From an uncultured Leptospiraceae bacterium (GTDB taxonomy: Bacteria > Spirochaetota > UBA4802 > UB4802), in assembly GCA_964629365.1 (NCBI GenBank), contig CAZVRB010000004.1:18827-82826 (forward strand): a DNA stretch of 64,000 bases. Reading direction: 5' to 3'. How positions within the stretch are numbered: the stretch's first letter is position 1; each line of letters starts with the position of its first letter. The position numbers and the translations under genes are program-made. The notes beneath the pieces are model-generated. The model saw nothing but the letters and a program-made list of their open reading frames with translations, ran no database searches and was not told where the DNA came from. This document shows, in pieces, positions 10,830 through 37,761 of the stretch.

Positions 10830-12389
10830 TTATTTCATTCCGAAAAATGAACTGATGCTATTTATAATCTCATCTCCGTAATCTCCCAGCAATTCACCTG
10901 TACTTTTTCTGTGCTTAAGCTGCAGTCTTGATTCAGTTTCCAGCTTGCGGCTTGCCATTACTTTTGCAAGCTCTTCAATAACCTCCGGCCTTTTTTCCAG
11001 TATAGGGGCAAGGTCTTCCCTGGAAAATTCCATGGCCTGGCAATCGGTAAGGGCAACAATTGTGGCCGATCTGCGCTCACCTGTTAAAAGTGAGTTTTCC
11101 CCGAAACAATCCCCGGTTGCCAGGCGCTCCAGTTCAACCGGCTTGCCATATGAATCAAGACGGGATATGGAGATTACACCGGCAGTTAATACCATCAGGG
11201 AATCACCTTTGTCCCCTTCCCTGACAATGGTTTCGTTTTCCCTGTAACTATTCAGGGTTACCCTTTCCAACAGTTCTTTGCGCTCTTCTTCGGTAAGAGG
11301 CGAAAAAATTTCAACGCTGGATATAAGTTCGTCAAGACCGGGTTCAATTATTTCATTGCGCTCTCCACTAAAGACATTCACTTCATGAGCGGATGGTGGC
11401 GGACTTATTCCTGCCTTCTGGCAATAATTCCATATCTCCATGAAAAGGTCATCACGGGCGGCAAAATACGTGGGATAATCTTCAAAATATACAAAAACAG
11501 AGTAGAGATAAGGCCTGCTCGTCCCATCCGAGAGGCGAACTACAGGGGGAGGATCCTTCAAAACTTTTTTACAGCTGAGAGCTGCTTCCAGTAAAACCCG
11601 ACGTACGAGTTCAGGAGAGATATCAGGTGAAATTTCCATCTTGAACCATGTACAGTAAACCCTGTCAGGCAGGTTGTAATTATGGATTGTGGAGGACATG
11701 GCTTTTCCGTTGGGTACTACGTACACGCTCTTGTTCCATGACAAAAGTCTTGTTGAGCGCCAGTTGATATCCACAACCTTCCCAATAGTACCATCACCCA
11801 TCTCAATCCAGTCATTGATACGGTAGGGTTTCTCTATGCTGAGAGCTATACCCGCGAATATATCTCCCAGGGTAGTTTGCATCGAAAGACCTATAACCCC
11901 GGCAATAATCCCTGATGAAACAAGAAGACCGGTTACAGGGCGGTCAAACACAAAGGTCATAATGCCATAAATGGCAAGGAGGTATACCCCTATCCTCACA
12001 AGGTTTTGCAGTATGTTGGGAACATCCATACCGGTTCGCCGTTTTACCATCCCTTTCCATACAAATAAATCTACAGCCTGAACAATTATACGGGCAAAAA
12101 TCAACCATAGTAAAACGGTTCGACCACGAGTTATCATGTTCGCGATTCTATCATCAAGAATAGGACCAAGCCAGTTGAATACCAGTGCTTCAAGTGACAA
12201 TACAAATAGGGGCAAAAGCACTATCTGTATCAACCAGAAAAAACGGATTATCAACAGCACCTGCAAACGATCAGCTGCTTTTTTCAATATCACGTATATA
12301 ACAAAAATCACGAGGACCGGATACGCCATCTCAACTGGCAGGCTTGATGTACTGCCCTTGAGGTATTCCAATATCATATGCACATTCAT
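10830..12389 (-). CDS. MscS-family mechanosensitive channel with C-terminal cyclic-nucleotide-binding domain
   Basis: TM region plus MscS pore/beta domain (GDIFAGIALSIEKPYRINDWIE...VVPNG). C-terminal cNMP-binding domain (GDKGDSLMVLTAGVISI...GDCFGENSLLTGERRSATI). Confidence 0.8.
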   Translation of the reverse strand: MNVHMILEYLKGSTSSLPVEMAYPVLVIFVIYVILKKAADRLQVLLIIRFFWLIQIVLLPLFVLSLEALVFNWLGPILDDRIANMITRGRTVLLWLIFARIIVQAVDLFVWKGMVKRRTGMDVPNILQNLVRIGVYLLAIYGIMTFVFDRPVTGLLVSSGIIAGVIGLSMQTTLGDIFAGIALSIEKPYRINDWIEMGDGTIGKVVDINWRSTRLLSWNKSVYVVPNGKAMSSTIHNYNLPDRVYCTWFKMEISPDISPELVRRVLLEAALSCKKVLKDPPPVVRLSDGTSRPYLYSVFVYFEDYPTYFAARDDLFMEIWNYCQKAGISPPPSAHEVNVFSGERNEIIEPGLDELISSVEIFSPLTEEERKELLERVTLNSYRENETIVREGDKGDSLMVLTAGVISISRLDSYGKPVELERLATGDCFGENSLLTGERRSATIVALTDCQAMEFSREDLAPILEKRPEVIEELAKVMASRKLETESRLQLKHRKSTGELLGDYGDEIINSISSFFGMK

Positions 12390-12636
12390 ATCCTGTTCCT
12401 GATTACATGGAATATATTAACCACTTTAACAGAATACCCATAGTATATGCAAACCAGCTAGTCAACAACATTGTACTGGGTAACAGGGGATATTATTTTT
12501 CTTGATTTTTTTCGGAAATACCGGTAATACTATATTCTAATCTACATTGTTCATGCGGGTTTTTTGCATACCTCTCACACCGATAACACCTGCCCGTAAT
12601 AATGCAACGCGCACTCATCCTGATGGAGGATACGAA

Positions 12637-14205
12637 ATGCCGGCTACAGTAAGCAGTCTTGATGAATTAACCAGGGCAGGAACACTTCTTACACAGGAGT
12701 TGGACTTCAAATCATTGATCTCCATCATCGCAGAACAGACACTGGATATATCCCTTTCAGACCTGGCCTGCCTTTACCTGGCAAAAGACCCAGAAGACAA
12801 TAATAGTGATTTACAACTAGCATATAAGAGGGGAAGATATGATGTCCCTTCCCGTATAACAGCTTCAAGTGAACTGGTTGACTTCATACGAGAATCGGAT
12901 GAGACCGTTGTTCTTACAGATCGTAAAAGAAGCCCTTTTCTTGATATACTCTGTAATGAACATATGCATTGCGGCATCGCCATGCCTCTATCTACTCCCA
13001 AAATCATGGTGGGTATACTGGTACTTAACAGCATAGAACCTGGATTTTACAACAGGGAAAAGTTTAACTTTCTGGATTCATTTTCCAGGCTGGCAGGTGG
13101 CATGCTGCATAATTCCCGCATGTTCAAACAACTCAGGGACTACCTGCGGGAGATCGAAGAGTTGCATTTATACCAGGAAAGTATATTCTCTTCCATGACC
13201 AACCTGCTTATTACCACGGATAATAGTGGAGAAATTCAGTATTACAATACCGTGGCAGAAGAACGATTTGGACTATCCGACGAACAGAAGGGCAAAAAAT
13301 TTGATACAGTGTTTAAAGACTCAATGAACAGAAAGATAATCAATGCCATAAATTCTTCCATCAGGCAGCCAAAGGAAATGCCTGGAATAGAAGGTATTTT
13401 CCGTGATGAAGAAAAAGAGATGGATTTCTCACTTAATCTTTCACCGCTTAAAGGCCGTCGTGGTAAACACCAGGGATTAACCCTTCTATTCACCGACCAG
13501 ACCCGCGAACGCGAACTGGAAGAAAAAATGGAGCGGGTGGTTGAAGAGCGACGCGTCATCAAGGACATGTTCTCCCGCTACCTTTCACAGGAGATAGTTC
13601 AAACATTGATGGAGCAGCCTCACCTTGTGAAACCCGGTGGTGACAAGAAGGAAGCCGCCATCCTTTTCGCAGATATACGGGGATATACAACCTTCTCAGA
13701 AACCAAGCCTCCCGAATATATTATTGAGATGCTAAACGACTATTTCAGCGAGGCTGTTGAGATCGTGGTGAAACATCGAGGGTATATAGACAAGTTTATT
13801 GGTGACGCCATAATGGCTGCCTGGGGGGTTCCCCTGCAAACAGAACAGCAGGATGCCATATCGGCGGTTTCTGCAGCCCTTGAAATTCAACAGTTAATCG
13901 CTTCAACCAGGCGGACATTCTTCAAGGGAGATGCGTCAGTACTGAAGGTGGGCATAGGATTACATACGGGACCCATAGTGGCCGGCAATCTTGGAAGCTC
14001 ACGGCGTATGAATTACACCGTTATCGGCGATACTGTCAATGTAGCTGCCAGGCTTGAAGGTGTAGCAAAGGGTGGTGAAGTTATCATCACACAGAAAACC
14101 CTCGACTACCTGGGTAACCTTTTCGCGGTCAAAAGCCTCGAGCCGGTAAAAGTAAAAGGAAAAGCAGATCCCATTCCCATATACAGTGTGCTCAAACAAA
14201 ATTAG
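12637..14205 (+). CDS. class III adenylate/guanylate cyclase with N-terminal GAF and PAS domains
   Basis: CHD motifs AILFADIRGYTTFSE, FIGDAIMAAWG, GLHTGPIVAGNLGS and YTVIGDTVNVAARLE. GGAGGA RBS before ATG 12637. Confidence 0.8.
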   Translation: MPATVSSLDELTRAGTLLTQELDFKSLISIIAEQTLDISLSDLACLYLAKDPEDNNSDLQLAYKRGRYDVPSRITASSELVDFIRESDETVVLTDRKRSPFLDILCNEHMHCGIAMPLSTPKIMVGILVLNSIEPGFYNREKFNFLDSFSRLAGGMLHNSRMFKQLRDYLREIEELHLYQESIFSSMTNLLITTDNSGEIQYYNTVAEERFGLSDEQKGKKFDTVFKDSMNRKIINAINSSIRQPKEMPGIEGIFRDEEKEMDFSLNLSPLKGRRGKHQGLTLLFTDQTRERELEEKMERVVEERRVIKDMFSRYLSQEIVQTLMEQPHLVKPGGDKKEAAILFADIRGYTTFSETKPPEYIIEMLNDYFSEAVEIVVKHRGYIDKFIGDAIMAAWGVPLQTEQQDAISAVSAALEIQQLIASTRRTFFKGDASVLKVGIGLHTGPIVAGNLGSSRRMNYTVIGDTVNVAARLEGVAKGGEVIITQKTLDYLGNLFAVKSLEPVKVKGKADPIPIYSVLKQN

Positions 14206-22926: not shown

Positions 22927-24726
22927 ATGATCCGGCATATTCTTACATCAGGGCGGAGTGTGTTTTGCCTGGTAATCGTGCTTACATGTCTATCACTCAT
23001 ACAATGCGGCAGGGGAACCCATCCCCCCGACAACCTGCCACGTGGTGCCGCATGGCCGCTTGAACTGCCACGCAGGCTATCCGGAACCCTGGGTGAGATA
23101 CGGGGCACATCAATGCATTATGGCATAGATGTGAAGACAAACGGTAGAAATGGATACAGGGTGAATGCCATTGCCGACGGGGAAATTCAGTCACTGATAT
23201 CAAAACCATGGGGATACGGGAAAGGGATATACCTGCGCCATAATGATGAATACATGTCAGTATATGGCCATCTTGATGCGTTTGAGAACCAGTCTAACAA
23301 TCTCAATGACCTGGTTGCCCTGCTGCATGTATTATACCTTGATGAGTCCGTGTTCTTTTCGCCGCGAAATCACTCCCTGTATTTTGAAAAAGGTGACGCA
23401 ATAGCCTATACCGGGGAAACAGGATCAGGATATCCCCACCTGCACCTGGAATTAAGGAAGGGAGAGGAGTATCTCAATCCTTCAGTCATCTTTCCAGCCG
23501 ATGATGACAAGGCACCCGTCATCACCGCGATCTTTCTATGCAGGGAGAAGGGCAACACCACAATTGAAGAAACCATGTTAAAATTAACACCCAAAAAGCA
23601 GAAAAAAGAAAACAGGGTTATTACCACCTCACCCGTCACCCTGATCCCAGGAGAAAAGTATTTCTTCAAGCTGTCATGCTATGACAGTGTTAACGCCAGA
23701 AATCCGGTAGTACCCTATACAATATCATACTCCATTAACAACACCCGCCAGTTCTCCATACAGTTTGACCGGCTGACAAAAAAAGATCTATATTACGGAT
23801 CCATGATATACGATATTTCCCGGTCAACAATACACGGCAAGCCCTCATACACCTATTTTTTATGCAGAAGGACAGGGAACAATGCCGCCTGCGTCAACAC
23901 ATCAGACAAGAACGGTTATCTCGATGCAAATAATGGGGGTCAAACTGCCGAGTTTCGAGTTTCAGATCTCGGGGGCAATGTTACCATCGCACAAATTCCC
24001 ATTACCAGGTCAAAAAAATCAAAAGCAGCAATGCCGGGTAAAAACTGGAAATGGATTTCACGCAATACATCAAAAAAAATAGTGACCAGTGATAAATCCT
24101 GTTCCGTTGAAATGCCCGCCTATGCCCTTCCCTCCTCTTCTTTCATTTCTCTGGAAAGGGTGCAAAGCAGCAAAACTCTTGCTTCGGTTAAGAAATCGGC
24201 ACGGGGAACACGTCTTTTCAGTGTGTACAACCTGAAACCGCACGATGGACTTCTCCGCAAAAAAGCAACCATCATGATGAAAGCACCCGGTGGAATGAAT
24301 CCCAGGGTGCTGAAAAAAATTACTATCTGCCAGTTCTATCCCGGGAAAAAACCGAGGAAACTGCGTACAACCTACGATAAAAGTAATAACGTTTTCACGG
24401 CAAAGACACGTAAGACCGGTTACTTCGCCCTGCTGATGGATTATTCTCCACCATCCATCTATCTCCCCCCTGTTCACGAGATGATCAACCAGGATAACGG
24501 GATAACACATGTGAGAATCCACGCGGTGGACAATCTTACCGGTATCAACACATACAGGCTTACCTGTTTTTTAAACGGAGAAGCAGCCTCCTTCACTTAC
24601 GATCATGACCGCAAGTGGATAGACATACTTGTCCCCCCCGGAAAAAGCCGGATACATCACCTGCTCATCAAGTGTCCGGATTACGCCGGCAACTGGCGGG
24701 TATATCGAAACCTGGTGAATTTTTAA
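22927..24726 (+). CDS. M23 family metallopeptidase with long C-terminal extension of unknown function
   Basis: HYGIDV...GHLD...GETGSGYPHLHLELR M23 motifs in the first 200 aa, signal/TM at the N-terminus, and about 400 aa of unassigned sequence after it. Confidence 0.75.
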   Translation: MIRHILTSGRSVFCLVIVLTCLSLIQCGRGTHPPDNLPRGAAWPLELPRRLSGTLGEIRGTSMHYGIDVKTNGRNGYRVNAIADGEIQSLISKPWGYGKGIYLRHNDEYMSVYGHLDAFENQSNNLNDLVALLHVLYLDESVFFSPRNHSLYFEKGDAIAYTGETGSGYPHLHLELRKGEEYLNPSVIFPADDDKAPVITAIFLCREKGNTTIEETMLKLTPKKQKKENRVITTSPVTLIPGEKYFFKLSCYDSVNARNPVVPYTISYSINNTRQFSIQFDRLTKKDLYYGSMIYDISRSTIHGKPSYTYFLCRRTGNNAACVNTSDKNGYLDANNGGQTAEFRVSDLGGNVTIAQIPITRSKKSKAAMPGKNWKWISRNTSKKIVTSDKSCSVEMPAYALPSSSFISLERVQSSKTLASVKKSARGTRLFSVYNLKPHDGLLRKKATIMMKAPGGMNPRVLKKITICQFYPGKKPRKLRTTYDKSNNVFTAKTRKTGYFALLMDYSPPSIYLPPVHEMINQDNGITHVRIHAVDNLTGINTYRLTCFLNGEAASFTYDHDRKWIDILVPPGKSRIHHLLIKCPDYAGNWRVYRNLVNF

Positions 24727-24737
24727 TAACCTGTAAT

Positions 24738-25259
24738 CTATTTCCTGTTACGCTTAAAAATATATGGCAGGATGAAAGGGGTTTCCTGCTTGTACCGGGT
24801 ATACTCTTCACCGAAACGTTTCTCAAGCTCCCTCTCTTCAACAATTTTATCATACAACAAATGTAACGATGAAATCACCACAGCGATGACCAGTGCCGAT
24901 ATCGACCACAGGGCAATTGCCGCACCCAAAAGCATGAGAATCACACCCAGGGCCATTGGATTCCGACAATACCTGTATGGTCCCCTGACCACAAGCTTTA
25001 CGGCAGGCAAGAGGGGGACGGGGGTGCCCTCTCCTATAGCATATTGGGCATAGATTGACCATAACGCTATCCAGATACCGGCAAGCAGGACAAACACTCC
25101 AGGAACCAGCCGGTAAAGATCATCTATTTCCGTGTATATGCTGTATTCAGGATGGAAAAAAATAGTAGCTCCAAGCATAACCAGCGGCAGCACCACTGCC
25201 CAGGCAATTATTCCCGTGGCAATTACACCCAGTTTTATAAATTTTTTTTCCATATTCAA
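24738..25259 (-). CDS. isoprenylcysteine carboxyl methyltransferase (ICMT/PEMT)-family membrane methyltransferase
   Basis: Multi-TM protein with the YRYCRNPMALGVILMLLG and EERELEKRFGEEY C-terminal signature. Confidence 0.65.
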   Translation of the reverse strand: MNMEKKFIKLGVIATGIIAWAVVLPLVMLGATIFFHPEYSIYTEIDDLYRLVPGVFVLLAGIWIALWSIYAQYAIGEGTPVPLLPAVKLVVRGPYRYCRNPMALGVILMLLGAAIALWSISALVIAVVISSLHLLYDKIVEERELEKRFGEEYTRYKQETPFILPYIFKRNRK

Positions 25260-25958
25260 TTATTTCTGTAAAAAGGAGTCCGGATCAAGAGTTTTTTCTC
25301 CTTTCCGGATTTCAAAATGCAGATGGGGACCGGTTGCCCGCCCGGTGGCACCAACTGTACCAATTACTTCCCCACGTGTAACCTTATTACCTTTTTTCGC
25401 GTATCGTTTATCCAGATGCCCATAATAGCTGACCAGGTTATCAGCATGTTGAATAACTACCAGGTTTCCATAACCATTATTATAGTAGGCAGATTTCCGC
25501 ACTACACCTGATGCAGTTGCCTTTACCGGCGTTCCCCGTGGTGCCGCGATATCAATACCCTTATGAAATGAAGATTTTTTTTTGGTTATGGGATCTACCC
25601 GGTAACCATAATCGCTGGTACGTGTTCCACTTGCAGGTGAAATAAAATTTTTAGACTCCAGCTTATCCACATCATCCACCTTTTCTGGTGATACGGGTGA
25701 AATCATCTTACCTGGTATCGATTCACCTAGGCCGTCATTTATTTCTTTCATAAATGCGTCAAGTTCTTTCAGTATTTTCTGTTTTCTCTCAAGATCTGAA
25801 GAATGCTGCTTGTCCACACGATCCCTGTCCGCTGTTTTCTGATCAGTATACCTGTTATCCCCATTAGCCGCGTATGCAGTCAGCAGGAAGATTAGACTTA
25901 CGGTCCACAATTTTTTCATTCTCCACTCCACCTGGCCCTTAATTAAATCATTACCCAA
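25260..25958 (-). CDS. M23 family peptidase (secreted)
   Basis: Signal peptide. HKGIDIAAPRGTPV...GHLD...GATGRATGPHLHFEIR motifs. Abuts the ICMT gene and overlaps the kinase gene by 8 nt. Confidence 0.8.
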   Translation of the reverse strand: MGNDLIKGQVEWRMKKLWTVSLIFLLTAYAANGDNRYTDQKTADRDRVDKQHSSDLERKQKILKELDAFMKEINDGLGESIPGKMISPVSPEKVDDVDKLESKNFISPASGTRTSDYGYRVDPITKKKSSFHKGIDIAAPRGTPVKATASGVVRKSAYYNNGYGNLVVIQHADNLVSYYGHLDKRYAKKGNKVTRGEVIGTVGATGRATGPHLHFEIRKGEKTLDPDSFLQK

Positions 25959-28900
25959 GAACCCTGTTCAGCACCTTGGTAATATCACTCAGCCTGAAAG
26001 GTTTGGTTATCACATCTTTAAAACCATACGCACGGTGATTTGCCATAATCGGGTCATTAGAATACCCGCTGGAAACGATGGCATTTATATCCGGATCAAT
26101 TTTCAAAAGTTCCCCTACTGCCTCTTTGCCCCCCATCCCTCCGGGAATGGTGAGATCCATTATCACTGCCCCGAAAGGATTATTTTCCTGCCGTGCTTTC
26201 TTATATTCATCGATGGCTTCTTCGCCAGTCTTAACACATTTTACTTCATATCCCAGGTACTCGAGCATATGGCTTGATACGTCACATATATATTCCTCGT
26301 CATCCATGATCAGAACTCTTCCGCTTTGCTGCGTGTTTACCTGGTATACATCGTCACTCTTTTTAACATCCTGCGAGGATGCCCTCAGATATATTCTGAA
26401 TGTTGTACCTCCATCCTCCTGTGATTCAACCTTTATGTGGCCACCATGTCTTTTAATTATTGAATAACTGCTGGCAAGTCCCAGTCCTGTTCCGTAATCT
26501 TTTGTAGTAAAATAAGGATCAAAAATTTTATTCAGTATCTTCTTTGGAATACCCGGACCTTCATCTTCAATTGAGAATGTGACGTATTTACCTTCAGGCA
26601 AAGGAACATCGAGTTTACCCTCATAATTCCTGGCCACAATGTAGATCGTACCACCCTCAGGCATGGCCTGCATCGCGTTAATTATTATATTATTCAACAC
26701 CTGGCTAATCTGTCCTGTATCAATATCAACAGACCATAAACCGTCTTGTATGTCAAATTCGCAATTGACACCCGATCCGGCAAGAATGAAGCTTACTGTT
26801 TCCCTGATCAGGTCAACAATTGAAGTTATTTCCTTGATTGGCTCTCCTCCTTTCGCGAAGGCCAGCAACTGGCGTGTCAGGTCTACCGCCCGCTGGGCCG
26901 CCTGTTCAATTTTTTGGAGAATGGGGAATGGCTCTGAATCATCCGTCATCTTTATCTTGGCAAGGGAAAGATTACCCAGGATGGCTGTTAAGAGGTTATT
27001 AAAATCATGGGCAATCCCCCCCGCAAGCACGGATAACGACTCAAGTTTGCTCATTTTCAAGATTTCCTGCTCAAACTGATGCTTGTCCGTAACATCACGA
27101 ATTGCCAGCACAACACCGCTCATCTCCTCTTTCTCCATCCTGATAGGGGCACCGTTAAGCTCAACGATCCGTTGATTGCCTGACATGGTAACAAGGGTCA
27201 GCGGTATTCCAATCATGTCAAGTTCTCCATACGCCATCACCTGTGTTACAGGATCCGGGTAATCTTCACTTGTGTTCAGATAACGCAGAAACAGCACTTC
27301 ACTCATTTTTTTACCTTCTGCGTCTTTTTGCGAAATACCGATCAATTCTTCTGCCACCCTGTTGATCAATAGAATTGTTCCCCGTATATCAGTGGTTATA
27401 ACTGCATCACCTATAGATCGTAACATTGCACCAAGCTGTTCTTTTTCTCTTTCCGCTGTTTCGTTTGCTTCAATCAGTTCATTATGGGTACTTAACAATT
27501 CTTCATTAATAGCCTCAAGTTCTTCATACTGGGACTGGATCTCTGAATACTGCTGTTGTATTGTGGAATGGGCCTTCGTCAACTGGCTGATGTCTGTGAT
27601 AATTGCCAGTGTACCCATACGTTCCCCAAGTGTAATTGGAACGGCTGAGATGTGCACCTGTTTTACATCTCCTTCAGATGTACACATCTGGGCCTCGTAA
27701 TGAGTGGGAACATCCTTTTCCCCTTTCATACGGGACCTGTAATTTTCTAATACTATTTTACCACGCTCCGTATCAGGTACCAGGTCGCTAAGCGATTTCG
27801 CATAAAAATCATCCTCTGAATAATTCAGCATGGACAGCATGGCAGAATTTACAAATGCAGGTTTTTCATCAATAACCACGATAATTCCGTCATGCGCGTT
27901 TTCTACCAGTGACCTGTATTTGGATTCAGATTCTTTCAAAGCTGCGATTGCAAATTCTCTCTCTCTTCTAATAGTATTGATCTTGTCAGCGATTCCAAGT
28001 GAAAACAGGAGCACCATTATTGACGACCCGATCTGGTAACCCCATTCAGTGAGAAATATGTCAGGAAGCACAGCATACACCCTCAGTGACAACAAGAGTG
28101 CCCCCAGTATAAAACTTACCGACGCGATCATATAAAAAACAGCAGGGCGGTGTTTCTTGAACAGCTGATGAAAACCGATAACCAGTAAAAGAACAGCTGC
28201 TGCCATGGCATGCAACACGGATGCCTGTGTACCATAATAATACCCGATTACCAGCACGGCTCCCATTCCAATTATGCCTATGTATAACAACAGCTTCAAC
28301 AGCCTGTCCAGAAAGGGCTGCAAAGTGGATGTATTTAAAAATGACCTTGTAAACAATGTAATACTTACCATAACCAGGAATACCGAGAAAGGGTGGGCCT
28401 TGTTTGCCCACCAGGTATTTCCCGGCCAGAGATACTTAAAGGCCAGGCCGTTGTTCACCATTGAAAAAATAAAAATACCGATTATAAAGAACACAAGATA
28501 AAGATAACTACGTTCACGTATGGAAAAGAAAATGAACAGGTTATAAAATAACAAGGCCGCCATAATGCCATAATACAACCAGAGAATGGGCAACTCCCTG
28601 AATTTACTTCGGAACAGTGCATCCCGGGACCATGCGGTTAGTGGTACCACCAGGGATCCCTGTGAACGTACGCGAAGATAGTATGTCCTTTTTCCGGCAG
28701 GCTCAACGAGAGGAAATACATAATTTCTGTACAGGGGCTCCGGCCTTGAATAAAAATCAAAGGTATCACCGGTGCGAATCGTTCTATAACCGGTTTTTTC
28801 GGGTATGAACAGGGTTATATCATCAATAATTGGGTATCCAAACTCCAGGTGCCATTTAAGCGGTTTTCCAGTAACATTATCTACCGTAAAACGAATCCAG

Positions 28901-29187
28901 AGAGCTTCCTCAGAGTAGCCGAATGAAGGATGTGCTGCAGCAATATGGGCAAATTGATACTGGTCACCACCAGAAGATATTTCATTTATTTTTACAGAGG
29001 AATCAACACCTTCCACATATTCAATATACTGATCCAATTCAATTTTTGAAAGATCAGCATCCAGAATAACCGTGTGTTCATTTCCAGCATGAAGATATTG
29101 ATACGATGAAAGTATCAGTATTGTGGTGATCAATGATATTTTATATAAATATTTCAATGCCATTATGTAATTACTCATCACCATCAA
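25951..29187 (-). CDS. 7TMR-DISM hybrid sensor histidine kinase/response regulator with PAS domains
   Basis: N-terminal DISMED2 plus 7TM, PAS, HisKA (HDFNNLLTAILG), HATPase_c (GTGLGL) and a C-terminal REC (LIMDDEEYI...DLTIPGGMGG). Confidence 0.85.
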   Translation of the reverse strand: MMVMSNYIMALKYLYKISLITTILILSSYQYLHAGNEHTVILDADLSKIELDQYIEYVEGVDSSVKINEISSGGDQYQFAHIAAAHPSFGYSEEALWIRFTVDNVTGKPLKWHLEFGYPIIDDITLFIPEKTGYRTIRTGDTFDFYSRPEPLYRNYVFPLVEPAGKRTYYLRVRSQGSLVVPLTAWSRDALFRSKFRELPILWLYYGIMAALLFYNLFIFFSIRERSYLYLVFFIIGIFIFSMVNNGLAFKYLWPGNTWWANKAHPFSVFLVMVSITLFTRSFLNTSTLQPFLDRLLKLLLYIGIIGMGAVLVIGYYYGTQASVLHAMAAAVLLLVIGFHQLFKKHRPAVFYMIASVSFILGALLLSLRVYAVLPDIFLTEWGYQIGSSIMVLLFSLGIADKINTIRREREFAIAALKESESKYRSLVENAHDGIIVVIDEKPAFVNSAMLSMLNYSEDDFYAKSLSDLVPDTERGKIVLENYRSRMKGEKDVPTHYEAQMCTSEGDVKQVHISAVPITLGERMGTLAIITDISQLTKAHSTIQQQYSEIQSQYEELEAINEELLSTHNELIEANETAEREKEQLGAMLRSIGDAVITTDIRGTILLINRVAEELIGISQKDAEGKKMSEVLFLRYLNTSEDYPDPVTQVMAYGELDMIGIPLTLVTMSGNQRIVELNGAPIRMEKEEMSGVVLAIRDVTDKHQFEQEILKMSKLESLSVLAGGIAHDFNNLLTAILGNLSLAKIKMTDDSEPFPILQKIEQAAQRAVDLTRQLLAFAKGGEPIKEITSIVDLIRETVSFILAGSGVNCEFDIQDGLWSVDIDTGQISQVLNNIIINAMQAMPEGGTIYIVARNYEGKLDVPLPEGKYVTFSIEDEGPGIPKKILNKIFDPYFTTKDYGTGLGLASSYSIIKRHGGHIKVESQEDGGTTFRIYLRASSQDVKKSDDVYQVNTQQSGRVLIMDDEEYICDVSSHMLEYLGYEVKCVKTGEEAIDEYKKARQENNPFGAVIMDLTIPGGMGGKEAVGELLKIDPDINAIVSSGYSNDPIMANHRAYGFKDVITKPFRLSDITKVLNRVLG

Positions 29188-29361: not shown

Positions 29362-29434
<73 letters not shown>

Positions 29435-33526: not shown

Positions 33527-33741
33527 CATATCCTCCAATGTTGTTTCAATTGCCGTACTTATACATGGTACCTGCACATTTATTTGTCAAATAATCTTTT
33601 CAGAATCTTCACTTTTCAGTCTAAATGTCTTTTTTTTCTTGACAGTTATAATACAATGTTTTTCTAGTAGAATTGTTGCTTCTCCATTCTCTACCATATA
33701 TATTATCTCATAACATCATCTATTCCGTGTCGGGAGGAAAA

Positions 33742-34698
33742 ATGTATCATGATCCAGTTCATATTATCGGATCTTTACTAGTGGTAGATGATGACCCAAC
33801 CATCTGTAAAATACTTACAAAGATCCTGACTGAAGACGGGCATTCTGTTGATTTCGCTTACAATGGAAAAGACGCGATAGAACTGATCAGCAAAAAAGAA
33901 TACGATATTATCGTATCCGACGTCAAGATGCCCGGTGATCTCGGCGGCATGGAACTTTTAAACGAAATAAACAACATTAAGCCGGACACTGACGTCATAG
34001 TTATAACAGGATACGGCTCCATAAACGATGCTGTTGAATTCATGAAATCAGGCGCCCTGGATTATATCGTCAAGCCGATAAATCATGACCACCTGCTTAT
34101 AGTTATTCAAAAGGCGCTTGAACGAAAACGTCTTATCAAGGCCGCACGTGAACGTGATTATTACATGAAAATTTCCCTTACAGATGCATTAACCGGCCTG
34201 TTTAACCGTAAATATTTTATGGATGCCCTTGAAAAGGAGATCCAATTATCCAGCAGAAAAGAACGTATTTGCAGTGTAATGATGCTTGATATTGATGACT
34301 TCAAGAAGGTGAATGATACACATGGACATCAACTTGGTGACAAGGTATTGCATGAATTCGCCAAGAGGGTACTGAAGGCATGCAGACGTTATGACACGGT
34401 TGCCAGATATGGAGGTGAAGAATTTTCAATAATACTTCCCGGAACCCCCATTCCCGATGCTGAAAAAGTCGCCTGCCGTATCGTATACAGCCTGGGGAAG
34501 GTCCCATTTGACGGCATAGAAAAAGGAGTTACCGCATCGATCGGCATTTCAAGTTATCCATCTCATGCTGTTGGTGTTGACGAAATGATTCGTGCGGCGG
34601 ACAAAGCCCTGTACTGGAGCAAACAGCAGGGTAAAAACAGGTATTCGGTCTACTCTGGTCAGATTGAATCCTTGTTCCAGAATGTTTCAATCAACTGA
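33742..34698 (+). CDS. response regulator receiver fused to GGDEF diguanylate cyclase (PleD-like)
   Basis: GGGAGGA RBS. REC LVVDDDPTICKIL...DVKMPG. GGDEF domain with an RYGGEEF active site. Confidence 0.8.
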   Translation: MYHDPVHIIGSLLVVDDDPTICKILTKILTEDGHSVDFAYNGKDAIELISKKEYDIIVSDVKMPGDLGGMELLNEINNIKPDTDVIVITGYGSINDAVEFMKSGALDYIVKPINHDHLLIVIQKALERKRLIKAARERDYYMKISLTDALTGLFNRKYFMDALEKEIQLSSRKERICSVMMLDIDDFKKVNDTHGHQLGDKVLHEFAKRVLKACRRYDTVARYGGEEFSIILPGTPIPDAEKVACRIVYSLGKVPFDGIEKGVTASIGISSYPSHAVGVDEMIRAADKALYWSKQQGKNRYSVYSGQIESLFQNVSIN

Positions 34699-35811
34699 CA
34701 TATCAATATCTTCTTCAACAGACTCAATACCTGCCTCCCTTTTTTTATTGGTATATGCGTCAATCAACCAGTACATTTCCCAGAAAGTGAAAAACAGTGT
34801 AAGCAGGATAGGTCCGATAATAACGCCGGGAAGCCCAAAAGCCTGGATGCTTCCAATGAGAAGAAAAAAGAAAATAAGAGGGTGAAACTTCAATTGTTCA
34901 CCAAACACAACAGGTTTCACCAGGTTTTCAAGTAACAGGTACCAGGCAAGACACCAGATAGCCACAACTGCCGCATCACCGAATTGACCCAGCGCAACCA
35001 GGTACAACACCGCGGGCACCCATACAAAAGTAGTACCTATAACCGGGATCAATGAGAATATTGCTGCGATACTCCCCCACAAAAGCGGCATACCTACTCC
35101 ACCAATAATAAACCCCACACCTACCATTGATCCCTGAAGCACCATAATTAAAAGATTACCGGCAAGAAGTATCTTGATTACCTGGCGAAGCCGGTCAATT
35201 ACATCCATCTCAATATCATCAGGGAATGGAAGAATCCTGTAAAAAGGCTCTTCAAGTCGATACCCGTCCTTGAATAGAAAGAACAGTATCAATAACATAA
35301 AAAAGAAATCCAGGGCGAATTTTATAGAAAAGGAAAGCAGACCGGTAAGATTTGAAAAGAAATTAAGTGACATTCTTTGCAGGTATGCCACTATCTTTTG
35401 CATTATTTCTGTTTCTGATATATTCAAAATCCCAATCAGCTCTTGTGCCATGTCACTTTTATGCAGCAATTGCTGAAAAACAAGAGGATCAAATGATTGC
35501 TGCAGAAAAAGATAAAACGCGTATGTCTGGTTTGCAAGTGCAACCAGTAGAATAAAGAGCGGTATAAGAATAACAGCGATGAGGAAAATTATCAACACTG
35601 TTGAGCAAAGAAGCCTGATTTTAAGATATTTTAAAATATAATCCAGAAGTGGCTTTAAACCCATATAGAATATAATGGCAAAAAGGAAAGGCCAGAAATA
35701 ATAGCGGAAAATATACCCGAGACTGGCAATTACGATTAAAAATAATACCAGGAATAGTATTTTTAGTCTTCTATTTTCAGAAACGGTAAAATATGATTCT
35801 CTTTGTTCCAT
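34687..35811 (-). CDS. AI-2E family transporter (UPF0118/PerM)
   Basis: 8-TM protein with the conserved C-terminal LIGSIQAFGLPGVIIGPIL motif. Confidence 0.8.
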   Translation of the reverse strand: MEQRESYFTVSENRRLKILFLVLFLIVIASLGYIFRYYFWPFLFAIIFYMGLKPLLDYILKYLKIRLLCSTVLIIFLIAVILIPLFILLVALANQTYAFYLFLQQSFDPLVFQQLLHKSDMAQELIGILNISETEIMQKIVAYLQRMSLNFFSNLTGLLSFSIKFALDFFFMLLILFFLFKDGYRLEEPFYRILPFPDDIEMDVIDRLRQVIKILLAGNLLIMVLQGSMVGVGFIIGGVGMPLLWGSIAAIFSLIPVIGTTFVWVPAVLYLVALGQFGDAAVVAIWCLAWYLLLENLVKPVVFGEQLKFHPLIFFFLLIGSIQAFGLPGVIIGPILLTLFFTFWEMYWLIDAYTNKKREAGIESVEEDIDMSVD

Positions 35812-35887
35812 AGTGTTTAGTTGTAATCGGCCTGAGCAAAGCTCAGGCCGATTCGCAATGGGTCTTATCAGCTAACCTCTACTGCGA

Positions 35888-36076
35888 TTACTTGGTGAGA
35901 TAGTGAGATAAATCAGTTGCAATTCTGTTAATGGCATGATCCAGGTATGCTTCATCAGATATCTTTTCCCGATATTCCCTGACCTTTCCAGATATGCCTT
36001 CACCTGGTCTGTTTTTTATCTCACGATCATCCTTGTTCATGAGACGTTTCATATAGTTACCCCTTATTTCGGTCAC
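35888..36076 (-). CDS. small charged hypothetical protein
   Basis: 62 aa ORF only. No family recognised. Confidence 0.2.
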   Translation of the reverse strand: MTEIRGNYMKRLMNKDDREIKNRPGEGISGKVREYREKISDEAYLDHAINRIATDLSHYLTK

Positions 36077-36195
36077 CTGTCCCTCCTTGAACAGGTTAGC
36101 TGACCTGATTAATGGATCGGTAAAAGGGGGCTTGTTATTTAACGATTCTTATAAATTCGTGGAAAAATATGCAAAGGATGGGGATAAAAACCAGG

Positions 36196-36567
36196 TTATC
36201 TCACAATATCCTGTATCCATTGCACAGTTCCTTCATTTATGGTGATAAGGTCAAATCTGCATGTGATTTCAGCTTTATCATACCGTGGATATTGTATAAG
36301 AAAATGCCTTGCCACAGTCCGCAGTGTCTTCTTTTTTCGTGCAGATATGGCGTATTCTCCGCCACCATAGGCATTGCCGCTTCTGGCCTTTACTTCCACG
36401 AATGCTACCAGCAAATCCCGTACTGCGACAATGTCAAGCTCACCATACCTGCCATACCTGAAATTCCTGGCAATAATTGTAAATCCCTTCTCAACCAGGA
36501 AATGGCATGCGGTTTCTTCACCCGCATTCCCATGAAGTATATTAGACTGGTTTTTTTTCGAGGACAT
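36196..36567 (-). CDS. YraN-family (UPF0102) endonuclease-fold protein
   Basis: GNAGEETACHFLVEKGFTIIARNFR...GELDIV...FVEVKAR. Confidence 0.7.
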   Translation of the reverse strand: MSSKKNQSNILHGNAGEETACHFLVEKGFTIIARNFRYGRYGELDIVAVRDLLVAFVEVKARSGNAYGGGEYAISARKKKTLRTVARHFLIQYPRYDKAEITCRFDLITINEGTVQWIQDIVR

Positions 36568-36570
36568 TGA

Positions 36571-37761
36571 TTACAACACGTCAAACAGGTTAACGCCCAC
36601 TTCTGATTCATCCATGGCGCGGGTGATATACAAAGAAGACTCTTCAAGCAGATTAATTATGAGGGTCTCTTCAATAGGGTTTTTTTCGCTGTCAAAGATT
36701 AATTTTACCAGGGGCCTGAGCGGCTTCTGCGGCACCGAACCAACAACAATACCTACACTATTATCATTAAGCTCCACTATGGATCCAATTGGGTATACAG
36801 ACATCCTTGAAAGGAAAACGCGCAGAATAACAGGATCAAACCTGTTAATGCCGCTTGAAAGAAGATTTTTCATGGCATGATAAAAGAACAGCCGTTTTCT
36901 ATAGCTTCTGCTGGCAATCTGTGCCTCATACGAATCAGAGATAGAGGCAATTCTTGCGTATTCATCGATTTGTGTACCTTTAAGCCCCCTTGGATATCCC
37001 TTTCCATCGAATTGTTCGTGATGCTGCAGGCAAATATTGGCACTTTTTTCGGGGACTTTCCCAAGCTGTCGAAGGGCCCTGTAACCCAGTAGCGGATGAG
37101 TTTTTATCTGGTTAAACTCATGATCAGTAAGGTTTGACTGCTTATGTATTATGTATGCCGGCATTTTTACCATCCCGGCATCGATCAGCATTGTTCCCAG
37201 GCCCAATTCACGCAGCTTTACCGGTGTGTACTTTAATGCCATCCCTATAAGAAGTGAATAAAAAGTAACATTCACGGAATGAACTACAAGATAATTTTTT
37301 CCTTCGTCAAGACCATACAGAAAAAGGAATATATTTTTATTCTCTTTCATGAGATCAATAATCTTTGAAAGTGAAACTTCTATCTGGTCGGTTGTGAATA
37401 TTTCTTCAGCCTTAATTGAATTGTACACATTGGTTATTGCATCACATGCTTCCTTATGTACTTCAATAAGCGCTCTTCTCTTGGTAAGCAGAACATTGTA
37501 TTCTTCTAAAATCTTTCGTGCATCTTCACTTGACTGCCCTGATGATTTTACCGCAGCCGCCTGCAGCTCATTGTCAGTTGAAAGCAGGTTTCCCGAAGTT
37601 TCAACTTCACTTATTCCCCACCGCATAAGCTTCTTGATATCATCTGTTTTGATGCTGATATTGGCTGATACCAGCATATTGTTTTTATCAATATATACTG
37701 GCTTATCAAACCGCATACCCGGTTTCAACTCTTCAACTGGTATCTTCCTCATTTCCGCCAT
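36571..37761 (-). CDS. HD-GYP domain phosphodiesterase
   Basis: HD motif plus HHEQFDGKGYPRGL. Confidence 0.8.
   Translation of the reverse strand: MAEMRKIPVEELKPGMRFDKPVYIDKNNMLVSANISIKTDDIKKLMRWGISEVETSGNLLSTDNELQAAAVKSSGQSSEDARKILEEYNVLLTKRRALIEVHKEACDAITNVYNSIKAEEIFTTDQIEVSLSKIIDLMKENKNIFLFLYGLDEGKNYLVVHSVNVTFYSLLIGMALKYTPVKLRELGLGTMLIDAGMVKMPAYIIHKQSNLTDHEFNQIKTHPLLGYRALRQLGKVPEKSANICLQHHEQFDGKGYPRGLKGTQIDEYARIASISDSYEAQIASRSYRKRLFFYHAMKNLLSSGINRFDPVILRVFLSRMSVYPIGSIVELNDNSVGIVVGSVPQKPLRPLVKLIFDSEKNPIEETLIINLLEESSLYITRAMDESEVGVNLFDVL

Follow-up and report, generated by a model that had tools for sequence, protein, structure and literature searches.

A hybrid histidine kinase gene beside M23 peptidase and membrane methyltransferase genes in uncultured Leptospiraceae-like spirochaetes

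In Sinorhizobium meliloti, the 7TMR-DISMED2-7TM-PAS-GGDEF-EAL receptor RgsP binds the M23 protein RgsM, and both proteins are essential for polar cell-wall growth (PMC6107284). We examined a 64,000-nucleotide (nt) stretch of DNA from an uncultured Leptospiraceae bacterium (contig CAZVRB010000004.1; hereafter the window), in which genes for a 7TMR-DISM hybrid histidine kinase, a small M23 peptidase and a PEMT/ICMT-fold membrane methyltransferase follow one another on the minus strand and are faced by a gene for a second, large M23 protein (Table 1). A reading made from the letters of the window and their translations (the sequence-only reading) had proposed that the kinase is coupled to the two peptidases in an envelope-remodelling response. 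Our comparison indicates that the four genes, all of routine envelope and signalling types, probably make up an ordinary chromosomal neighbourhood that is confined to a single lineage of uncultured Leptospiraceae-like Spirochaetota. A specific functional coupling of the kinase to the peptidases, or of the methyltransferase to the same pathway, is unsupported; an envelope-remodelling role of the cluster is plausible by analogy with RgsP and RgsM.

Gene order in close and distant relatives

Six further loci (L085, L086, L005, L004, L001 and L006), from metagenome-assembled genomes (MAGs) labelled Spirochaetota or Leptospiraceae, have all four genes in the same layout, and their proteins are 60-100% identical to those of the window: about 100% in L085, 91-95% in L086, 89-95% in L005 (labelled 'Spirochaetes bacterium M55B154'), 70-85% in L004, and 60-73% in L001 and L006 (the latter labelled 'uncultured Leptospiraceae bacterium'). 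All relatives with these genes keep the arrangement. Where the flanks are long enough, in L086 and L006, collinearity with the window extends over every gene tested and at least 16 kb, from GNAT, epimerase, MFS, GH1 and TetR genes at one end to penicillin amidase, aminotransferase and subsequent genes at the other; on the shorter contigs, collinearity runs to the ends. Given this collinearity, conservation of the trio is inseparable from the general synteny among close relatives.

Distant relatives of the individual proteins were found in other surroundings. Among 78 loci with a distant methyltransferase relative, for which up to 8 kb of flank was covered on each side, a single one (L083) had an M23 gene nearby, 2.5 kb away and not adjacent, and none had a 7TMR-DISM sensor gene. 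Neither the methyltransferase nor the kinase sensor was encoded near a distant small M23 relative at any of 38 metagenome loci. For the 7TMR-DISMED2 proteins that come closest in the sensor region among the matches listed (33-34% identity, on long contigs), an M23 or PEMT gene was a neighbour in none of three cases, and the trio stood beside none of three large-M23 relatives at 36-38% identity, all of which have other contexts. Thus, the order kinase-M23-methyltransferase was absent from otherwise non-syntenic genomes (78 + 38 + 3 + 3 distant loci). The sequence-only reading had itself offered conservation of the operon structure as the point on which it would stand or fall; that conservation holds among close relatives, all of them collinear with the window, and fails at all other loci sampled.

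Within this sampling, the large M23 gene appears to face the trio in this lineage only. Two of its three more distant relatives, in the Spirochaetota loci L002 (8968-13577) and L130 (5052-9681), lie between an upstream gene for an LTD-domain (lamin-tail) protein and a convergent bipA/typA gene, a setting that may be ancestral for the large M23 family and that differs from the window.

As it stands, the cluster matters little: its members come from large families, and common descent within a small clade of uncultured spirochaetes accounts for their adjacency.

Table 1 Features of the four-gene neighbourhood and its surroundings (positions in the window; aa, amino acids; ORF, open reading frame)
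Feature	Position	Strand	Basis or remark
Large M23 metallopeptidase, 599 aa	22927-24726	+	Pfam: Peptidase_M23 only, N-terminal; convergent with the trio
PEMT/ICMT-fold membrane methyltransferase, 171 aa from ATG 25253	24738-25253 (longest ORF to 25259)	-	Pfam, profile search, AlphaFold 2 (AF2) model and Foldseek
Secreted M23 (LytM-type) metallopeptidase, 219 aa from ATG 25919	25260-25919 (longest ORF 25260-25958)	-	Pfam and conserved start
Hybrid sensor histidine kinase, ~1078 aa	25951-29187	-	Pfam domains and hydropathy
tRNA-Ala(CGC)	29362-29434	+	Between the kinase and penicillin amidase genes, on the strand opposite to both
ORF, 233 aa	10070-10771	+	No Pfam match
Cyclic nucleotide (cNMP)-binding MscS-type channel	10830-12389	-	
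PAS-adenylate/guanylate cyclase	12547-14205	+	
ORF, 169 aa	33068-33577	-	No Pfam match
REC-GGDEF response regulator	33673-34698	+	4.5 kb from the kinase gene
HD-GYP-like HD_5/DUF3391 protein	36571-37761	-	

The encoded proteins

Each of the four proteins is a routine member of a very large, well-populated family, and none of them reaches the cut-off of an NCBIfam functional model. The kinase is identified by its domains as a 7TMR-DISM hybrid histidine kinase, with the sensor, the seven-transmembrane (7TM) region, the phospho-acceptor histidine, HATPase_c and the receiver all recognizable. An N-terminal signal or transmembrane segment is followed by 7TMR-DISMED2 (aa 53-187), 7TMR-DISM_7TM (aa 201-402), two PAS domains, HisKA, HATPase_c and a C-terminal Response_reg domain. 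The two family-defining domains score 118.9 bits (PF07696, 7TMR-DISMED2; cut-off 22) and 157 bits (PF07695, 7TM; cut-off 29), and PF00512 (HisKA), PF02518 (HATPase_c) and PF00072 (receiver) each exceed their cut-offs; the Pfam E-values recorded for the protein are 8e-46, 2e-34, 2.7e-24 and 2.8e-15. By hydropathy, the protein has one hydrophobic segment at its N-terminus and seven more at aa 201-400, and both the H-box 'AHDFNN' (HDFNN) and the receiver motif 'IMDLTIPG' can be read in the sequence. Candidate start codons (TTG, ATG and GTG) lie at 29187-29160. The sensor region of the protein shares at most about 34% identity with full-length relatives outside its own clade, among the matches listed. 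Thus, the description of the protein as a 7TMR-DISM kinase is borne out by its architecture; the carbohydrate ligand that had been added to this description is a family-level prediction for 7TMR-DISMED2 by Anantharaman and Aravind (quoted in PMC6107284).

No histidine phosphotransfer (HPt) domain and no DNA-binding regulator is encoded in the four-gene cluster, so the output of the kinase would go through partners encoded elsewhere. As a separate observation, the gene of a 7TMR-DISMED2 histidine kinase with 34% sensor identity in a Thermodesulfobacteriota MAG (L125, 1142-4195) lies directly downstream of a gene for a 269-aa PF00905 transpeptidase (penicillin-binding), which adds one more isolated example of a 7TMR-DISM sensor gene next to a gene related to the cell wall or to beta-lactams.

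The small M23 protein matches Pfam Peptidase_M23 at 125 bits and consists of a signal peptide, a charged linker of about 80 aa and the M23 domain. Its HKGID, YYGHL and HLHFE motifs are intact, so that the LytM-type zinc site (HxxxD, H, HxH) is complete and the enzyme is predicted to be catalytically competent. Its best NCBIfam matches are Pgp3, ShyC and MepM (84-97 bits), all far under their cut-offs (Pgp3 96.6 bits versus 300, ShyC 96.4 versus 700), and it is assigned to none of the named subfamilies MepM, ShyA/C, Pgp3, DipM, NlpD and EnvC.

The large M23 protein carries a hydrophobic N-terminal signal with Cys27, which suggests that it is possibly a lipoprotein. Its M23 domain (about aa 40-190) gives a Pfam Peptidase_M23 match split in two by an insertion. 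Residues H64, D68, H115, H171 and H173 do not vary among 46 homologues, and the zinc ligands HxxxD and HxH, together with the central catalytic histidine, are complete. The sequence-only reading had described the C-terminal 400 aa as unassigned, and this region indeed had no match in the Pfam copy that we searched, even at E<=10. On the other hand, a precomputed PF27332 match is recorded for a database protein 99% identical to the large M23 protein (P0001), and the PF27332 model is evidently newer than our Pfam copy. PF27332 matches are precomputed for P0007 and some other members of the family as well.

The AF2 model of the large M23 protein (predicted local distance difference test score, pLDDT, 87.6; predicted TM-score, pTM, 0.83) places about 400 aa of confidently predicted all-beta structure, in beta-sandwich-like domains, behind the M23 domain. 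In a structure search against the PDB, the M23 domain alone matched well (StM23, Csd1/Csd2, EnvC and ShyA). The remaining PDB matches assign the C-terminus to no specific family: these matches (ankyrin ZU5, adhesins and cadherins, with tandem beta-sandwiches) are weak, with TM-scores <0.2. Relatives show weak Big_13 Ig-like matches at the extreme C-terminus. The region, although unnamed, is neither an orphan nor unusual. Proteins of about 560-600 aa that align over their full length (86-100% coverage, 20-39% identity), with conserved D/G/N positions within the C-terminal beta region, are common in Spirochaetota and Bacteroidota (Flavobacterium, Pedobacter, Alistipes and others), where they are annotated just as 'M23 family metallopeptidase'; we found no characterized member of this long (~560-600 aa) family. 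An exact-sequence look-up of the 599-aa product returned no database match because the database gene calls take another start.

The methyltransferase exceeds the Pfam cut-off for PEMT (PF04191, 56.7 bits; cut-off 25) and stays under that for ICMT (PF04140, 20.9 bits; cut-off 24). The protein is mostly helical and hydrophobic and carries RNPM and EExELxxRFGxEYxxY motifs of the cofactor region. A profile search matched the ICMT of known structure Ma-ICMT (4a2n) at E 4e-7, with R-x-P-M and EE..L...FG.EY..Y kept in the alignment. The AF2 model (pLDDT 88.2) had 4a2n and 5v7p as its top PDB matches in Foldseek (probability 1.00), with a TM-score of 0.63 to 5v7p when normalized to the query length. 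The protein is thus confidently predicted to have an ICMT-like membrane fold with a C-terminal cofactor-binding motif.

Three functional subfamilies were considered for the methyltransferase and rejected on their cut-offs: isoprenylcysteine methyltransferase (NF040696, 36.8 bits versus 160), the lipid A 1-phosphate methyltransferase LmtA (TIGR04571, 31.4 versus 325) and the methanethiol enzyme MddA (NF045656, 28.8 versus 270). In Leptospira, LmtA methylates lipid A; to our knowledge, bacteria generally lack CaaX-prenylated proteins. A literature search on bacterial ICMT homologues gave nothing useful. It had been stated that membrane methyltransferases of the ICMT/PEMT type are rare in bacteria, which is wrong: a single-sequence phmmer search returned 14,095 cluster representatives (50% identity) at E<=1e-3 and 1,146 at E<=1e-10, and relatives occur in at least 478 GTDB species representatives, including Chloroflexota, Desulfobacterota, Bacteroidota and archaea. 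One 367-aa representative, P0287, aligns with the methyltransferase over two stretches and may be a PEMT-fold protein that arose by tandem duplication or fusion.

Transcription and competing explanations

The sequence-only reading had placed the three minus-strand genes an 8-nt overlap and a 0-nt gap apart. The four ORFs lie where it put them, and the trio is co-directional and tightly spaced; the overlap and the gap themselves, however, are artefacts of taking the first TTG in the longest ORFs. The small M23 junction reads ...GGTGGAGTGGAGA ATG AAA AAA..., followed by the signal peptide MKKLWTVSLIFLLTAYA, and the methyltransferase junction reads TAA TTG AAT ATG. A GGAG Shine-Dalgarno-like motif precedes the ATG of the small M23 gene, and this motif and the ATG codons are conserved in the five genomes compared. 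In L086, the TTG positions further upstream have been replaced or are blocked by stops, and a 171-aa database gene call that is 100% identical to the methyltransferase (P0121) begins at the ATG. Taken together, these observations give real spacings of 31 nt between the kinase and small M23 genes and 6 nt between the small M23 and methyltransferase genes; the corresponding gaps in the relatives are 18-29 nt and 8-9 nt.

Given their common orientation and spacing, the three genes are probably co-transcribed, the promoter probably lying between the tRNA-Ala and kinase genes. The tRNA gene, found at the same position in L086, L006, L004 and L001, bounds this promoter region to about 175 nt. Promoter-like and terminator-like motifs were no more frequent than expected by chance, with no terminator-like site between the kinase and small M23 genes, and a search of the convergent gap and the intergenic regions for RNA elements or terminators found the tRNA alone. 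The large M23 gene would be transcribed separately, ending 11 nt off on the other strand. Since the large M23 and methyltransferase genes converge with only 11 nt between their stop codons (24727-24737; 29-48 nt in L004 and L006), which leaves no room for separate terminators, the two transcripts must either overlap or stop within the gene opposite.

If the locus is an ordinary neighbourhood, its products would most likely act as their families do. The kinase would signal by phosphorelay to a regulator encoded elsewhere, the small M23 peptidase would cleave periplasmic peptidoglycan cross-links, and the methyltransferase would use S-adenosylmethionine to methylate a membrane-embedded lipid or another hydrophobic acceptor. 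Co-expression of the three genes would make them a loose envelope-related module.

Three points weigh against an ordinary neighbourhood. The short gaps persist at about 60% protein identity, which is what a real operon would show, and a co-expression link could therefore exist. The 7TMR-DISM relatives are thinly sampled, being represented by three neighbourhoods, and the word-index search with the sensor domain, which covered at most 8000 candidates, missed even known orthologues and so does not serve to trace kinase orthologues at intermediate distance. Finally, RgsP and RgsM suggest that a direct partnership of kinase and peptidase is not far-fetched (PMC6107284).

A dedicated envelope-remodelling module is an unlikely alternative. 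In such a module, 7TMR-DISMED2 would sense a glycan or cell-wall cue, or bind the small M23 protein as in the RgsP-RgsM case, the M23 proteins would be responsible for peptidoglycan remodelling and the methyltransferase for modification of an envelope lipid. The tight co-directional trio, with its arrangement kept at 60-100% identity, and the intact active sites of both M23 proteins are consistent with this scheme, but there is no co-occurrence outside the fully syntenic clade, and the large M23 gene occurs elsewhere without the trio. A lipid target would agree with the action of the distant Leptospira relative LmtA on lipid A, yet the TIGR04571 match is weak (31 bits versus a cut-off of 325), and the methyltransferase reaches the cut-off of no functional subfamily. 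The precedent itself, an interaction essential for cell-wall growth in Rhizobiales (PMC6107284), involves genes with distant locus tags (SMc00074 and SMc02432) and a receptor with a GGDEF-EAL rather than a kinase output. We regard it as very unlikely, reasoning by the same analogy, that the kinase and small M23 protein are an RgsP-RgsM-like receptor-hydrolase pair wired to a phosphorelay instead of cyclic di-GMP (c-di-GMP) and that, with the methyltransferase modifying an envelope lipid, they constitute a spirochaete-specific circuit for cell-wall sensing and remodelling.

It is highly improbable that the small M23 and methyltransferase genes are a two-gene unit of their own, translationally coupled over the 6-nt gap and served by a promoter in the 3′ end of the kinase gene, with the kinase as an unrelated neighbour. 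Hybrid kinases are often encoded by orphan genes, a conserved Shine-Dalgarno motif precedes the small M23 gene itself, and in all relatives the gap between the M23 and methyltransferase genes (6-9 nt) is much smaller than that between the kinase and M23 genes (18-31 nt); even the larger gap, however, is still typical within operons, no terminator-like site lies at the kinase-M23 junction, and no promoter-like site rises above chance. The adjacency of M23 and methyltransferase genes is, moreover, not seen elsewhere: the 78 methyltransferase loci gave a single case, not adjacent, and the 38 small-M23 loci gave none. A toxin/immunity pair, consisting of a secreted M23 bacteriolysin and a membrane immunity protein, was rejected, as the methyltransferase family is ubiquitous and unlinked to M23 elsewhere, the context is that of a core chromosome (rplS-trmD-rimM nearby), and no mobile-element genes turned up among the window ORFs scanned.

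The wider neighbourhood is rich in signalling genes (10830-14205 and 33673-37761; Table 1), none of which, including the REC-GGDEF regulator gene, is linked to the kinase by any observation. The 169-aa ORF listed there is conserved in L001 and L086 (72-91% identity).

Comparison with described systems

The long M23 proteins of Spirochaetota and Bacteroidota share invariant catalytic residues with the large M23 protein, whereas their genomic contexts differ. The small M23 protein has the same LytM-type zinc site as the soluble periplasmic DD-endopeptidases MepM, ShyA/ShyC and Csd1-3/Pgp3, but differs from them in its N-terminal region, which has no LysM or coiled-coil regulator domain, and lies below their equivalog cut-offs of 300-700 bits. 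The methyltransferase has the multi-helix membrane fold and the C-terminal EE..L...FG.EY..Y region in common with Ma-ICMT (4a2n), eukaryotic ICMT (5v7p) and the PEMT family (PF04191), while RNPM takes the place of the RHPxY of ICMT. RetS and LadS of Pseudomonas aeruginosa share with the kinase a periplasmic 7TMR-DISMED2 domain and seven transmembrane helices, followed by a histidine-kinase core and one or more receiver domains; the window kinase differs in having two PAS domains between the 7TM region and HisKA and a single receiver.

A likeness drawn from described architecture is that to RgsP-RgsM of Sinorhizobium meliloti and Agrobacterium (PMC6107284), in which a receptor with 7TMR-DISMED2, 7TM and PAS domains is paired with a peptidoglycan-binding M23/LytM-domain protein. 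The N-terminal sensor part of RgsP is its essential part (PMC6107284). The output of RgsP is GGDEF-EAL (a c-di-GMP phosphodiesterase), whereas that of the window kinase is HisKA-HATPase-REC; RgsM is a membrane-anchored protein of more than 600 aa, whereas the small M23 protein is secreted and has 219 aa; and rgsP and rgsM have distant locus tags, with no methyltransferase involved, whereas the window genes are clustered. Should the kinase nevertheless control or bind the adjacent M23 protein, this would assign a function to one 7TMR-DISM sensor among the many orphans in Leptospiraceae and would be only the second link between a 7TMR-DISM receptor and a peptidoglycan hydrolase, after RgsP-RgsM.

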